Assembly (NCBI GenBank): GCA_964436715.1
Contig: CAYTEK010000003.1
Span: 1-51,871, forward strand
Direction: 5' to 3'
DNA from: an uncultured Verrucomicrobiota bacterium
GTDB taxonomy: Bacteria > Verrucomicrobiota > Kiritimatiellia > CAIQIC01 > Lenti-01
Length of the DNA: 51,871 nucleotides
Position 1 is the first letter of the stretch. Each line of letters opens with the position of its first letter. The notes under the pieces are model-generated. The model was given only the letters and a program-made list of their open reading frames with translations. It was not told the DNA's origin and ran no database searches. Positions 4,150 through 13,958 of the stretch are shown in pieces. A program made the position numbers and the translations under genes.

Positions 4150-5061
4150 TCATTCCGGCGCGGTCCGCAGGCGCGGATCCAGCGCGTCGCGCAGGACGTC
4201 GCCCAGCAGGTTGAACGCCAGCACCACCGCGAAGATCGCCGCCGTCACCGCCGCCAGTTCCCACCACATGCCCTGCCACAGCCGCAGGCGCGCCGACGCG
4301 ATCATCGTGCCCCAGCTCGGCTGGCCCTGCGCGCCGAGGCCCAGAAAACTCAGGAACACCTCCGTGCCGATCGGCGCCGGAAACCGCAGCGTGAACGACA
4401 CCAACGCCACGTGGACCACGTTCGGCAAAACGTGGCGGAACAGGATGCGCCCGTGCGAAAAGCCCAGCGCCTGCGCCGCCCGCACGTAGCCGCGGCCCTT
4501 CTGCCGCAGCGTTTCCGCCCGGATCAGGCGGCACGTGCTCACCCAGGTCGTGAGCCCGATCGCCAGGAACACGCCCAGCAGCCCCTTGCCCACCACCATC
4601 GCGATCGCCAGCACGAACAGCAGCCCCGGGATCGACGCGAACGTCGTCGCCAGCCACGTCACCACGTCGTCCGTCTTCCCGCCGAAATACCCGCCCAGGC
4701 AGCCCAGCAGCACGCCGATGGGAATCGCGATCAGCGACGACACCACGCCCACCTGGAACGCGATGCGCGCCCCCTGCGCCAGCCGCAGGCCCACGTCGCG
4801 CCCGAGCCCGTCCGTGCCCAGCCAATGCGCCGCGCCCGGCGCCTGGTAGCGCGCGGCGAGATCCTGCGCCTGCCACGGCGGCGTGACGTCCCGCCACGCA
4901 TACCAGTCGTGCGCGATCTCCGCGCCCAGCGCGACGAGGAAAAAGACCGCCAGCACCGCGAGGCACGCCCGCGCCGTGCGGCTGGCCCACACCTGCCGCC
5001 ACGCCGCGCGCCCCGGCGCCGCGTCGCGCGCTCTTTCCGCTGGTTGCGCGCCCGCGTTCAC
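4150..5061 (-). CDS. ABC transporter permease, DppC/OppC-like
   Basis: The C-terminal 303 aa of track ORF 4150..5901 read HWLGTDGLGRDVGLRLAQGARIAF..., then the EAA-loop region YVRAAQALGFSHGRILFRHVLPN. I set the start at GTG 5061-5059, which overlaps the upstream TGA (GTGA). Confidence 0.85.
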   Translation of the reverse strand: MNAGAQPAERARDAAPGRAAWRQVWASRTARACLAVLAVFFLVALGAEIAHDWYAWRDVTPPWQAQDLAARYQAPGAAHWLGTDGLGRDVGLRLAQGARIAFQVGVVSSLIAIPIGVLLGCLGGYFGGKTDDVVTWLATTFASIPGLLFVLAIAMVVGKGLLGVFLAIGLTTWVSTCRLIRAETLRQKGRGYVRAAQALGFSHGRILFRHVLPNVVHVALVSFTLRFPAPIGTEVFLSFLGLGAQGQPSWGTMIASARLRLWQGMWWELAAVTAAIFAVVLAFNLLGDVLRDALDPRLRTAPE

Positions 5062-6317
5062 GACAGCTTCACCCGCGGATCCACCCACGCCAGCGCGACG
5101 TCCGCCAAGACGTTCGCCGCCGTGAAAAACAGCGCGCCCACCAGCACCACTGCGCGCACCACGTCGACGTCCGCCGAATGGATCGCGTTGAGGCTCAGGT
5201 AGCCCAGTCCCGGAATCCCGAAGAAACTTTCCAGCAGCAAGCTGCCCGTGTAGAGGAACGGCAGCGCCAGCGCCACGTTGACGATCACCGGCCCCAGCGC
5301 GTTCTTCAGCACGTGCTTGAACAGCACGCGCCCTTCGCCCAGGCCCTTGGCGAACGCCGTGCGCACGTAGTCCTTGTGCATCTCCTCCAGCAGGATGGTC
5401 CGGTAGAACCGCACGTTCGTGCCCAGCCCCGTCGCCACGCCGATCAGGATCGGCAGCAGCAGGTTCCGCCACGATTCGAAGCCCCACACCGGGAACCAGC
5501 CCAGTTTGTACGCCAGCACGAACTGCCCGAACACGATCCACACCAGGTAGTTCACGCTCATCAGCGCCACGCAGACCGCCACGAGGCTCCGGTCCAGCCA
5601 CGATCCGCGCCGATACGCGCACAGCAGCGCCAGCGTCAGGCTGACCGCCAGCTCGACGACCAGGATCGGCACCGTCAGCGCGAGGCTCGGCCCGAGGCCG
5701 GCCCGGAGCAGCCGGCCCACCGGCTGGTTCAGGCTCGTGCTCGTGCCGAAATCCAGCCGCGCCACGCGCCGCGCGTAGTCCGCCAGTTGGCTGTCGAAGA
5801 AATGCCGCGTGCCCTTTTCCAGCCGCACGCGCCGGATTTCCGCCCAACCGCCGGCCGCGCGGAATGCCGGTTTTTCCACGCCGTGGAAAACTTTTTTCCA
5901 CGCCGTGGAAAACTTATTTCCATCCTGTGGAAAACCGGGCCCGCGGCCTTCGACCGTCAGGCGCCAGCGACCGTCCGCCGGCAGCGGAAACGCGAGCGGC
6001 AGGACCAGTTCCTGGCCGTCTTCCAGCCGCAGTCCGCCGGTGGCGCCCGCGCCCCAGGCCGCGCGCGCGCCGGGTCCGGCCGTTGCGAAATCCACGGTTT
6101 CCAGCGCGCGGGTTTTCGTCCAGCGGCCGCAAAAGAGCGGCTTGTCGTAGCCCCGCGCCGCGTCGAATTCCTCCAGCGAGCGGGCGCCGGCGTTTTGCCC
6201 GAGCACCAGCGCCGCGGGACTGCCCCCCACCACGTTGAACAGCACGAAGGTGATCAGCACGACCCCGATCACCGTCGGGATCGCCTGCCCCAGCCGTTTC
6301 GCCACGTAGCGCCACAT
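5058..6317 (-). CDS. ABC transporter permease, DppB/OppB-like, with about 110 extra residues in the first periplasmic loop
   Basis: MWRYVAKRLGQAIPTVIGVVLITFVLFN...YVRTAFAKGLGEGRVLFKHVLKNAL. The start is moved to ATG 6317. The extra segment between DKPLF and FFDSQLADY contains the 22-nt repeat array. Confidence 0.85.
   Translation of the reverse strand: MWRYVAKRLGQAIPTVIGVVLITFVLFNVVGGSPAALVLGQNAGARSLEEFDAARGYDKPLFCGRWTKTRALETVDFATAGPGARAAWGAGATGGLRLEDGQELVLPLAFPLPADGRWRLTVEGRGPGFPQDGNKFSTAWKKVFHGVEKPAFRAAGGWAEIRRVRLEKGTRHFFDSQLADYARRVARLDFGTSTSLNQPVGRLLRAGLGPSLALTVPILVVELAVSLTLALLCAYRRGSWLDRSLVAVCVALMSVNYLVWIVFGQFVLAYKLGWFPVWGFESWRNLLLPILIGVATGLGTNVRFYRTILLEEMHKDYVRTAFAKGLGEGRVLFKHVLKNALGPVIVNVALALPFLYTGSLLLESFFGIPGLGYLSLNAIHSADVDVVRAVVLVGALFFTAANVLADVALAWVDPRVKLS
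5872..5934. repeat. three tandem 22-nt hairpin units (TTTTCCAC-GCC-GTGGAAAA) inside the DppB-like CDS
   Basis: Inverted repeats at 5872-5890, 5894-5912 and 5916-5934 (the third is degenerate: ATTTCCAT-CCT-GTGGAAAA). The period is exactly 22 nt. Each unit has an 8-bp stem and a 3-nt loop. Confidence 0.9.
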
Positions 6318-6372
6318 GTCCGGCAGTATGCCACCAATCCGCGGCCGGCCAATCCCAAACCGCGCGAAACGG

Positions 6373-6888
6373 CTAGCCCCGCGCCCACAGGTCGAGCAAG
6401 CGCTCGGCCAGCGCATCGACGTCGGCGTCGGAGGTGTCGAGCCGGTGCGGCACCTGCGCGTAGTGCGGCGCGCGCGCGGCCAGCAGCTCGCGGATCTTGG
6501 CGCCGGGATCCGCCACGGCCAGCAGCGGGCGCTTCTTCGAGCGCGCGGTGCGCTCCAGGATGACGTCCGGCCGCGCCGTCAGGCAGACGAGCACGCCGTG
6601 CGCACCCAGCGCCCGCAGGTTTTGCTCGCGCAGCACCACCCCGCCGCCGCACGAAATCACCGCCCCGTCCTTCCGGCCCCACTCTTCGGCCAGCGCCGAT
6701 TCCAGGTCCCGAAACGCGGCCTCCCCGTCCTCCGCGAAAATCCGCGCGATCGGCTTGCCGGCGCGCCGTTCCAGCTCCGCATCCATTTCGAGGAACGGCC
6801 GGCCGGCCAAGGCGGCGACGCGCCGGCCCACGGCGCTTTTGCCCGTGCCCATGAATCCCAGCAGCACCAGATTCCGGAGATTTTCCAT
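6373..6888 (-). CDS. aroK: shikimate kinase
   Basis: 171 aa with Walker A LVLLGFMGTGKSAVGRRVA, GEAAFRDLE, and ISCGGGVV. Confidence 0.92.
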   Translation of the reverse strand: MENLRNLVLLGFMGTGKSAVGRRVAALAGRPFLEMDAELERRAGKPIARIFAEDGEAAFRDLESALAEEWGRKDGAVISCGGGVVLREQNLRALGAHGVLVCLTARPDVILERTARSKKRPLLAVADPGAKIRELLAARAPHYAQVPHRLDTSDADVDALAERLLDLWARG

Positions 6889-6903
6889 CCCGGACAGGGC
6901 AAC

Positions 6904-7128
6904 CTATTTCGGGTCGGACGTCAAATCCAACTTCCGCAGATACCGCGCCCGCCAGCCGCAGGCGGTTTTTTCGAGCTCGAGTTCCACGCGATCGCCTTCG
7001 GCCAACGCCCCCACGACGGCCAGGATTTTGGGCAACGGGTGCAGAAACACCTGCGCCCGCGTGGCGTCGAGCTCGGCGAAGCCGAAGCCCTTGCGGGAGT
7101 CGAACCATTTGACGGTGCCGGTGACCAT
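6904..7128 (-). CDS. cold-shock domain protein (divergent CspA family)
   Basis: 74 aa. MVTGTVKWFDSRKGFGFAE matches the RNP1 region of the cold-shock domain. The second half is divergent. Confidence 0.75.
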   Translation of the reverse strand: MVTGTVKWFDSRKGFGFAELDATRAQVFLHPLPKILAVVGALAEGDRVELELEKTACGWRARYLRKLDLTSDPK

Positions 7129-7242
7129 GGCCGCTCGTTCCGCGAACGCAGGACATGCGTTCGGCGATTGAGAAAAAATGCCACGTCGCCGTTAGGGGGC
7201 GATTCGGGGTCGGTTAATTTTTCGTATGAATTTTGCCCGATG

Positions 7243-7272
7243 AAAAAAACGGCCCCGCGCGAGGCGGGGCCG
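7243..7272 (-). terminator. rho-independent terminator after the PtsN-fusion gene
   Basis: A 9-bp GC stem, cggccccgc (7250-7258) paired with gcggggccg (7264-7272), with a 5-nt loop. It is followed by U7 on the minus-strand RNA (A7 at 7243-7249). Confidence 0.8.
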
Positions 7273-7301
7273 CAGCGGCCGTCGTGCCAACGGCTTGCGC
7301 G

Positions 7302-8138
7302 CTATTGAATGACGAGGCGCGTGGCCTTCATCAGGGCCTTCCACAGCTTCTCGGGCGTGTCCGCCTCGAAGAGCTTGTCGCGGTTTTCCGCCTTCTGGAA
7401 CACCTGCGAGAGGCCGGCGATCAGCTTGAGATAGAACGCGCTGGCGGCCGTGGGAATCACCATGAAGAACACGATGCGCGTGCCAGCCTTGCCGGCCGGA
7501 TCGAACTTGATGCCCTTGGGCGCGATGCCCAGCGCCAAGGTCAGCGCGCCGCCTTCGATGCAGCGCACGTGGGGAAACGCGATGCCGTTTTCCACGGCGG
7601 TCGTCACGATCGCTTCGCGCTTGAGGGCGGATTCCAGCAGCTTGTCGGCGTTGTCCACGAAGCCTTCGGCGGCCAGCTTCCGGCACATTTCGGCCAGCAC
7701 CGCGTCGCGGTCCGCGCCCTTCAGCGCCGGGATCATCAGCGTTTCGGCGGAAAACCGCTCGATGCCGATCTTGGGCGGATCGCTGCGGCGCGGGGACTTG
7801 CGGGTGTTGCGCGCGCCGGATTCCTGGTAGAACAGCAGGCGGGCGCAGGCGGGACAATGGTAGATCCGTTCGGCGGCGTGCACTTGGTGCACCAGCGACA
7901 CCGGCAGCGTCATGCCGCAGGCGGTGCACACGCCGTTGACCACCGGCACGATGGCCAAGGGATTCTTTTGCAGCAGCCGCGAAAACTGCTGGCCGACGTC
8001 GGCGGGGATTTCCTTGGTGAGCGACGCGATCGAGGCATCCAGCTGGTCGAGCTGGGCGCCCGGCATGCCGGCTTCCTGCTGCGCGCGGGCGATGATGAGT
8101 TCCTGAAGTTGGACGAGAAGATTAATGGTCGGTTGCAT
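7302..8138 (-). CDS. C4 zinc-ribbon (CT398/DUF164-type) fused to a PTS EIIA-type-2 (PtsN/EIIA-Ntr-like) domain
   Basis: The N-terminus has a coiled-coil-like segment followed by VCTACGMTLPVSLVHQVHAAERIYHCPACARLLF (CxxC...CxxC). The C-terminus is an EIIA-2 fold with ENGIAFPHVR (phosphorylatable His region) and IVFFMVIP. Confidence 0.75.
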   Translation of the reverse strand: MQPTINLLVQLQELIIARAQQEAGMPGAQLDQLDASIASLTKEIPADVGQQFSRLLQKNPLAIVPVVNGVCTACGMTLPVSLVHQVHAAERIYHCPACARLLFYQESGARNTRKSPRRSDPPKIGIERFSAETLMIPALKGADRDAVLAEMCRKLAAEGFVDNADKLLESALKREAIVTTAVENGIAFPHVRCIEGGALTLALGIAPKGIKFDPAGKAGTRIVFFMVIPTAASAFYLKLIAGLSQVFQKAENRDKLFEADTPEKLWKALMKATRLVIQ

Positions 8139-13917: not shown

Positions 13918-13958
13918 TTTTCCACGGCGTGGAAAAATATTTTCCGCACCGCGGAACA
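13918..13958. repeat. two tandem 22-nt hairpin units of the same family as 5872-5934, intergenic
   Basis: TTTTCCAC-GGC-GTGGAAAA at 13918-13936 and the degenerate TTTTCCGC-ACC-GCGGAA at 13940-13956. The period is 22 nt. The array begins 10 nt upstream of the dus start codon. Confidence 0.85.

Follow-up and report, generated by a model that had tools for sequence, protein, structure and literature searches.

The stretch of DNA analysed here, hereafter the window, comprises 51,871 nt of contig CAYTEK010000003.1 from an uncultured member of the Kiritimatiellia (Verrucomicrobiota), and all positions refer to its forward strand. On the minus strand, an open reading frame (ORF) at 5058-6416 contains, from its likely start codon (ATG at 6317, giving MWRYVAKRLG...), a gene at 5058-6317 for an OppB/DppB/NikB-like ATP-binding cassette (ABC) permease of 419 aa (counted from MWRY; P0001), which was identified through Pfam, NCBIfam and 1106 homologs. 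Within this gene lies a repeat element of 72 nt, or 24 codons (5867-5938), built of three short palindromic units. These units belong to a dispersed family that occupies permissive protein loops in frame, gains and loses whole units, and has lineage-specific arms common to its genic and its dispersed copies.

Read from 5867 to 5938, the element consists of CCGG, a T, unit 1, CTT, unit 2, CTT, unit 3 and CCGG, with the three units standing between inverted CCGG motifs at 5867-5870 and 5935-5938. Unit 1 (5872-5890) is a perfect palindrome, TTTTCCAC-GCC-GTGGAAAA, unit 2 (5894-5912) has the same letters, and unit 3 (5916-5934) is a degenerate version, ATTTCCAT-CCT-GTGGAAAA, in which six of the eight arm positions are paired and one more forms a G.T pair. 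Tandem Repeats Finder reports an array at 5871-5935 with a period of 22 nt, 3.0 copies and a score of 102. The initial annotation of this DNA had described three units with an exact 22-nt period inside a permease gene, and both the sequence and Tandem Repeats Finder agree with it; its statement that each unit is an 8-bp inverted repeat is correct for units 1 and 2, which are perfect, but unit 3 is an imperfect one. A search of the window for the 19-mer with up to three mismatches finds it at three places, two in the permease array and one at 13918 (counted as six strand matches), versus 0.02 expected from shuffles of the window. Folded as RNA, the 86-nt array region reaches -40.4 kcal/mol (z = -4.8), with -9.5 kcal/mol for a single unit and a range of -36 to -40 kcal/mol for the array. 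In the region 5600-6200, Logan contigs from four independent digester or wastewater metagenomes (X1, X2, X6 and X8) match the window exactly on both sides of the array, stop within it and never span it; the presence of two identical units in the window array is consistent with these contigs, though not independently proven.

On the minus strand the element is translated as GFPQDGNK-FSTAWKK-VFHGVEKP, in which one DNA unit is decoded in all three frames (FPxxGx, FSxxWK and FHxxEK): unit 3 encodes FPQDGN(K), unit 2 FSTAWK(K) and unit 1 (V)FHGVEK. Because the array adds 66 nt, the reading frame is kept and the minus-strand ORF is intact, so that the initial annotation was right on the preserved frame as well as on the decoding of the unit in three frames. 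None of the six frames of a perfect unit contains a stop codon, and an example of a 72-nt composite with the unit variant CCATAGCG is open in five of the six. The codons of the array are rare in the genes of the window (CCA makes up 3% of Pro, GGA 8% of Gly and TTT 19% of Phe codons), which argues that the sequence of the array is dictated by the DNA element and not by translation. Overlapping spurious ORFs on both strands hold the peptides FPRRGK, FHAVEN and FSTPWK; they are artefacts of the palindromic element, as had been noticed for the first two.

The host permease has the layout of an OppB/DppB-type protein, with a BPD_transp_1 core after an N-terminal transmembrane (TM) and loop module. 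Pfam places BPD_transp_1_N (PF19300, 3.8e-05, profile positions 1-66) at ORF residues 34-99 and BPD_transp_1 (PF00528, 6.8e-33) at residues 260-450, and the NCBIfam models of Opp, Nik and Gsi permeases pick up again near residue 193, although every NCBIfam equivalog model stays under its cut-off (the best, Opp2B, at 189 bits versus 350). Since the N-terminal module ends at residue 99 and the core resumes at about 193, some 95-110 extra amino acids follow the first TM helix. The corresponding extra domain (residues ~60-175, 5793-6140, minus strand) is mostly beta-strand and is shared by orthologs whether or not they have units; judged by the topology known for permeases of the OppB/DppB type, it would be periplasmic. 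An AlphaFold2 model from a 39-sequence alignment has a mean predicted local distance difference test (pLDDT) score of 68.8, with 85-90 over the extra domain and a fall to 65-76 over the array-coded residues 128-149, which in this model lengthen a hairpin between strands 117-125 and 159-169. The extra segment of about 110 aa that was initially said to host the array is therefore real, at 95-110 aa, but the element supplies only 22-24 codons of it.

When residues 1-200 of the permease were used as the query, the best 120 of the 1106 homologs had 53-91% identity and lengths of 385-484 aa, save for two truncated entries of about 250 aa. The 39 orthologs that we aligned conserve the extra domain in the pattern ...WTxTRALExVDF...WRLTVxGxG // variable // FRAxGGxAEIRxVRLE..., and 35 of them carry one to six recognisable units, or clear remnants of units, in the same loop, with none in the other four. 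Because the domain is conserved in orthologs with and without units, it predates the element. The series of units nearly always opens in the FPxxGK frame and closes in the FHxVE(K/N) frame, while unit number and order vary between close orthologs and array lengths differ by multiples of 3 nt (42 nt in locus L002, 63 nt in the window and 72 nt in L001, where L numbers denote the loci fetched for comparison). The permease DNA of L001 has the typical triplet [unit-12-unit-3-unit] and carries TTTTCCACA-G-TGTGGAAAA, that of L002 has two decayed units, and that of L004 (P0113, 66% identical to the window protein by tblastn) has six units of a CCAA type, TTTTCCAA-YCA-TTGGAAAA, with both arms altered in a complementary manner. 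In the 45%-identical ortholog of L188, whose organism has 57% GC, one perfect unit, TTTTCCAATGGTTGGAAAA, sits in the same loop. Of the five most distant aligned orthologs, four (P0116-P0118 and P0120) have a short loop and no recognisable unit. The loops of P0121 and P0107 are of similar length and may hold decayed remnants. The orthologs thus carry variable numbers of DNA palindromes in differing frames, and no peptide is conserved without the palindromes. With the loop occupied in orthologs down to 45% identity, the array is not a recent private insertion.

Copies of the unit are found well beyond the permease. In the window, a second array of the same family at 13918-13958 consists of one perfect unit (13918-13936) and one decayed unit (13940-13958) with a period of 22 nt; it is intergenic, between a Mut7-C-like gene and a minus-strand dus-like gene, 9-18 nt upstream of the start of the latter, and the orthologous site in L104 has two intact units. 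Among relatives, an exact-match scan for TTTTCCACGSCGTGGAAAA in one genome per species returned at least 110 stretches. Of the matches listed, nearly all fall in about 20 metagenome-assembled genomes (MAGs) that bear the label Kiritimatiellia, Verrucomicrobia, Lentisphaerae or Opitutae, a single MAG having up to 20 or more unit-bearing contigs, and about eight fall in other phyla, which is of the order predicted by a rough chance estimate; the unit-bearing loci from these matches, 807 kb in all, hold 343 units with at most two mismatches. The genome of the window itself is outside the fetched loci, the closest of which is 86% identical, and its copy number is therefore judged from the window, from relatives and from metagenome depth. 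In four metagenomes that hold the organism, the two perfect units reach, when contig depths are summed, 25-80 times the value of their flanks, a figure to which other community members contribute; such a pile-up is expected of a multi-copy repeat. Taken together, depth ratios and the density of loci suggest that the family spans tens to hundreds of loci.

Tabulated position by position, 356 units give a 19-bp palindrome, TTTTCCACG-S-CGTGGAAAA, that is symmetric right to the centre, with no more than 0.30 bits at the flanking positions -7 to 0 and 20 to 27. G.T-compatible arm variants are common among the units, and doubly substituted T/A pairs at positions 8/12 occur five times versus about 15 expected under independence. 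With up to three mismatches, the units form 133 clusters of one to nine, and their centre-to-centre spacings are 22 nt (107 times) or 31 nt (104 times), with a few at 30, 42-43 and 54. The commonest oriented form recurs in many genomes as a composite of 72 nt, [unit-3-unit-12-unit], whose 12-nt linker (...CGCGAAAAAG) is semi-conserved and whose ends are often CCGG(A)/(T)CCGG; the window element has the same ends and the same length, but a spacing of 22+22. Asymmetric variants (CCAT..GTGG and CCAC..ATGG) hold one orientation per array, and this orientation shows no correlation with gene direction or local GC skew.

A sister lineage has a unit of its own, TTTTCCAAT-S-ATTGGAAAA, with arms CCAAT/ATTGG instead of CCACG/CGTGG. 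The variant found in the L004 permease, TTTTCCAAYCATTGGAAAA, is dispersed as well: at least 120 metagenome contigs carry it, most of them at 52-70% GC, its units are spaced at 22 or 30-32 nt, and a five-unit composite with near-identical linkers recurs. For 27 of 29 long sister arrays the flanks have no substantial similarity to any other, one pair representing the same locus, so these are separate loci and not a single locus sampled many times; within 20 kb around the L004 permease itself there is no further array. The arms in the permease slot thus seem to be of the type found scattered over contigs of that lineage type, and because the sister lineage has its own arms both in the permease and in metagenome contigs, the slot follows the repeat family of its lineage.

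With gene contexts taken from a codon-usage gene caller trained on the loci, the arrays number 48 between tandem, 17 between convergent and 10 between divergent genes, plus 15 within genes, and many begin 0-15 nt past a stop codon and fill the whole gap. The genic copies are seen only in in-frame versions. By translation and Pfam, units are in frame in TatD_DNase (two in L012; five in L054, where the domain is split), NTP_transferase (four in L042, seven in L030), a Kdo/WaaP-family kinase (L027), an Rce1-like protease (L033, L099) and a YfhO-like membrane protein (L018), the Pfam domains of these hosts being intact or split by the insert; matches of one unit each in chorismate synthase (L002) and Hsp33 (L037), which may have arisen by chance, were left out of the count. 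The genes that recur next to arrays are orthologs with housekeeping roles (ABC ATPase, epimerase, MutY-like, topoisomerase subunit A, ferritin, TupA-like), and orthologous arrays differ by 22, 31, 54 or 93 nt, with one pair of genomes, 96-98% identical in the flanks, differing by exactly one 22-nt unit. Hence an array keeps its site from one species to the next even as its number of units changes. In some lineages units have decayed, as in the L002 permease or in the second unit at 13940. Three loci (L071, L081 and L088) are about 90% identical throughout and hence uninformative on the conservation of orthologous arrays. In metatranscriptome contigs, units are present at about the same excess over their flanks as in DNA, contig depth being a measure that cannot show transcript ends or an enrichment of RNA over DNA.

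To account for these observations, we propose that the 66-72 nt in the permease gene represent a single copy of a dispersed palindromic repeat of non-coding type, confined to one clade of uncultured Kiritimatiellia, that resembles repetitive extragenic palindromic (REP) sequences and bacterial interspersed mosaic elements (BIMEs) and that rides as a tolerated passenger in a protein loop, much as Rickettsia palindromic elements (RPEs) do; we regard this as the probable explanation. Arrays survive within genes because they have no stop in six frames, lie in a permissive loop and have a length that is a multiple of three. The array is translated passively in a hairpin loop of the extra domain, and units are gained and lost by 22 or 31 nt or by combinations that keep the frame; the peptide itself would be functionless. 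Over evolutionary time, the slot in the loop may be renewed by whatever spreads and homogenises the family, which could be a sequence-specific dimeric protein (a transposase or recombinase acting in trans), gene conversion together with slippage between copies, or both. Renewal along with the family would explain why the sister lineage has its own arms in the permease and in the dispersed copies alike. The initial suggestion of a REP- or MITE-like palindromic element (MITE standing for miniature inverted-repeat transposable element) in a tolerant loop is thus supported by the dispersed copies and by the variable units of the orthologs, but what had been pictured as an element inserted and amplified there is an occupation of the loop throughout the clade.

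Several results weigh against this explanation. A regular-expression search (HUH plus Y..NP) of six-frame translations of about 1.5 Mb of array-bearing loci found no motif of the REP-associated tyrosine transposase (RAYT) type, and the same 1.5 Mb of array flanks held no multi-copy transposase-like gene family beside the arrays. Among the fetched loci, a sample that consists of occupied loci only, there was no empty orthologous site and no target-site duplication, and for this reason we treat transposition as inferred. Many arrays are at orthologous positions across species (parC/gyrA-like, mutY-like, ferritin, upstream of dus, the permease loop), and a perfect unit persists in the 45%-identical ortholog; this positional conservation and the perfect unit in a diverged gene are as compatible with selection acting on the DNA as with renewal. 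A hairpin, moreover, does not need symmetry up to the central base, which a dimeric reader of double-stranded DNA would require. Beyond these points, six array-rich loci searched in E-value mode gave only chance-level matches to Rfam, with no family assigned. A scan of viral contigs for TTTTCCACNNNGTGGAAAA returned 28 isolated single sites and no arrays, a number of the order of a rough chance estimate, and such isolated, chance-like sites give no link to phages.

The strongest competitor takes up exactly these points and sees the arrays as functional platforms at which a dimeric protein specific to the clade would dock on double-stranded DNA and serve an architectural, insulating or tagging purpose, where units two and three helical turns apart place dimers on one face of the helix and genic arrays are kept by selection on the DNA, the protein loop being merely tolerant. 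We consider this possible but unlikely. It accounts well for a palindrome that is symmetric through positions 9/11 to a single central S, for spacings with sharp peaks at 22 and 31 and a few values of 42-43 and 54, each near a multiple of 10.5, for the depletion of doubly substituted 8/12 pairs, and for arms that change together between lineages in the permease and at dispersed loci, as well as for the orthologous positions and the perfect units in highly diverged orthologs. However, the dispersed copies share the sequence of their linkers and not just the length, so that the fixed spacing can be explained by common descent; the long spacing of the sister family varies from 30 to 32, units decay in some lineages, arrays occur in every gene context with no common gene set, and no candidate for the binding protein came to light. 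It is because shared linkers and decaying units fit descent by copying that we rank the tolerated passenger first and the docking array as its main rival. Carried to its full extent, the docking view would have this clade of Kiritimatiellia maintain genome-wide phased 19-bp dyads read by a putative dimeric DNA-binding protein, whose specificity shifted from CCACG/CGTGG to CCAAT/ATTGG and carried every array with it, genic arrays being kept or rewritten for the sake of the DNA site, a scenario that we hold to be doubtful. Action at the RNA level, by which hairpins make the mRNA upstream of them more stable, terminate or attenuate transcription where genes end, or hold up ribosomes on the permease message, seems improbable to us even though the folding energies given above are strongly negative, many arrays follow a stop codon within 15 nt, tandem and convergent gaps (48 and 17) outnumber divergent ones (10), units are abundant in metatranscriptome contigs, and the G.T-compatible arm variants recall those reported for REPs (PMC3733652). 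The strand on which the G.T variant pairs is unrelated to the direction of the flanking gene, and in the permeases of the window and of L001 the pairing strand is the antisense strand, both of which argue against a strand-specific role of the RNA; in addition, arrays do occur in divergent gaps, the RNA depth over units relative to flanks is no higher than the DNA depth, and the array-rich loci have no match in Rfam. An intrinsic terminator proper was rejected, as the T-run is part of the stem.

Two further readings have much less in their favour. One is that the units are paired DnaA boxes that titrate or regulate DnaA, since the half-site TTTTCCACA/G resembles TTATCCACA and lies only one or two positions from the consensus box, which is that of Escherichia coli, and L001 has TTTTCCACA-G-TGTGGAAAA. 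The form TTTTCCACA is a box form discussed for cyanobacterial origins in the paper on the Cyanothece oriC (PMC4674748). Yet the sister lineage, with TTTTCCAAT, changes the C at box position 8, and there are far more loci than known DnaA-titration sites. The C at position 8 of the DnaA box is strongly conserved. The half-site TTTTCCACG/A is near the box consensus, yet the arrays lack what marks a cluster of DnaA boxes (TTWTNCACA, few loci, an origin or regulatory context), and GC skew is monotonic across the window with no origin context; we judge the DnaA reading to be very improbable, and an origin of replication was rejected as well. Hardly credible at all is the idea that FPxxGK/FSxxWK/FHxxEK is a selected protein repeat of the loop with the palindromes as a by-product. 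The segment is indeed always in frame and part of it is modelled as beta-strand, but one DNA unit is read in three frames, the same peptides turn up in unrelated proteins and the same units mostly in non-coding DNA, the codons are rare, and the number and order of units vary among close orthologs. A conserved protein motif, which the initial annotation had already discounted, was rejected on the three-frame reading and the unrelated host proteins, and with it we rejected a reading as a CRISPR-like array (clustered regularly interspaced short palindromic repeats).

Compared with known systems, the repeat is a new family of a known type, REP/BIME-like in its distribution and RPE-like within genes. 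Like REPs and BIMEs, it has a short palindromic unit (19 bp, with a stem of 8-9 bp) in many copies restricted to a clade, arrays with few fixed linker lengths, and a location mostly at gene ends, in tandem or convergent gaps and often abutting stop codons, with divergent gaps under-represented but not excluded. Di Nocera et al. (2013) describe REP superfamilies tagged by GTAG and CGTC and find most intragenic REPs in the verrucomicrobium Opitutus terrae and in Rickettsia conorii, where dimers or groups encode 20-30 aa (PMC3733652); the Kiritimatiellia family likewise has occasional genic copies encoding 20-30 aa, as in O. terrae, which is another bacterium of the Planctomycetes-Verrucomicrobia-Chlamydiae (PVC) group. 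In contrast to REPs, the 356 units have neither a GTAG nor a CGTC tag in their low-information flanks, are almost perfectly palindromic up to the central base, point the same way throughout an array with no alternation, are AT-rich in a genome of 68% GC, and have no RAYT near the arrays in the motif search described above. With no tag, no alternation and no RAYT in view, the family is not a member of the GTAG/CGTC superfamilies.

RPEs are known as in-frame fusions in many unrelated genes (PMC10969869), and the likeness to them lies in a palindrome of selfish type that is found in frame in several unrelated housekeeping genes, is translated in permissive surface regions and is compatible with the function of the protein. 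An RPE, however, is a single element of about 100-150 bp with its own conserved peptide, whereas the 19-nt unit (72-nt composite) of the Kiritimatiellia is stacked in differing numbers of copies and decoded in three frames; the two are unrelated in sequence, the phylum is another one, and the family is not among the Rickettsia RPE families. The difference of one 22-nt unit between close relatives at the same locus recalls intergenic variable-number tandem repeats (VNTRs) of the type of mycobacterial interspersed repetitive units (MIRUs), but here the units are palindromes of one genome-wide family with two discrete spacings and an oriented composite. MITEs are resembled in small size, non-autonomy, the CCGG(A)/(T)CCGG inverted ends of many 72-nt composites and shared internal linkers, with the differences that no target-site duplication, empty site or parent insertion sequence was seen among the fetched, occupied loci and that repeated palindromes, in place of a unique core, make up the body. 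A targeted search of the full-text literature found no published description of this palindrome family, and its motif search returned only unrelated matches and the cyanobacterial DnaA-box paper.

The arrays matter in practice, for they make spurious ORFs on both strands (FPRRGK, FHAVEN, FSTPWK), break short-read assembly graphs, with Logan contigs ending inside the array, and add variable inserts of 7-60 aa to real proteins in Kiritimatiellia MAGs, and both annotators and users of protein families should recognise them. After Rickettsia and Opitutus, this is a third well-supported case of palindromic repeats shaping proteins. The permease loop amounts to a natural experiment, in which one genic slot is followed across a clade, copy number changes only in frame and the arms keep in step with the dispersed copies; it makes an old question, that of the spread and homogenisation of REP-like repeats, testable in a new phylum, with a trans-acting protein on one side and conversion plus slippage on the other. 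If the docking reading were true, the proteome would carry a readable imprint of a system of chromosomal tagging or architecture. What we find of most interest is this clade-wide, in-frame, co-evolving slot, together with the agent that keeps the family uniform.

Immediately downstream of the host gene lies an OppC-like partner permease (4150-5061, minus strand; Pfam BPD_transp_1 at 7.3e-30, plus OppC_N), whose start overlaps the stop of the first permease, and this OppB-like/OppC-like synteny is kept in L001, L002 and L004. No substrate-binding or ATPase gene adjoins the pair in the window (4150-8138) or in these three loci. In all four, a PTS_EIIA_2/Zn_ribbon_9 protein is encoded upstream of the pair, and the window, L001 and L002, unlike L004, also have a shikimate kinase upstream and leuA downstream. 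At 7384-7402, within the PTS_EIIA_2-like gene, lies a sequence with a weak likeness to the unit, TTCCGCCTTCTGGAA, which has three mismatches to the 19-mer and is kept in L002 (9349-9367); it probably represents normal coding sequence rather than a decayed unit. As for the second array of the window, the site upstream of dus has no units in L103, but a five-unit array stands there about 190 nt further upstream.

Other modules are associated with the units. In two permease orthologs (P0071 and P0080), a second insert of about 100 nt, also translated, directly adjoins the units, reading ...QPSAEPEPQAKGKREVYSEAQSASSERAARTERQN..., and it recurs in the unrelated YfhO-like protein (L018:3840-3945) as ...KAQGEREVYSAAPPRGERGSDSDRSGN...; it looks like another dispersed module that uses the same slots as the palindrome units. 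In MAG JAAZFE01, two direct three-unit arrays bracket a core of about 150 nt (L016:2128-2428, L066:4614-4935 and L089:4741-5061) made of phased A/T tracts, ...CCCCAAAAAACGCCCCCCAAACACCC...GGCCCATTTTGGCCC..., and since L016 and L066 share this core, the composite of about 370 nt is itself repeated. Finally, the GC-rich hairpins TCCCGCCCGCGCGGGA and CCCGCTTCAGCGGG serve as longer linkers, with spacings of about 53-54 nt, at L107:1947-2174, L073:2177-2414, L078:1687-1769, L039:3514-3605 and L061:4009-4100, which suggests a second repeat family nested in the arrays.

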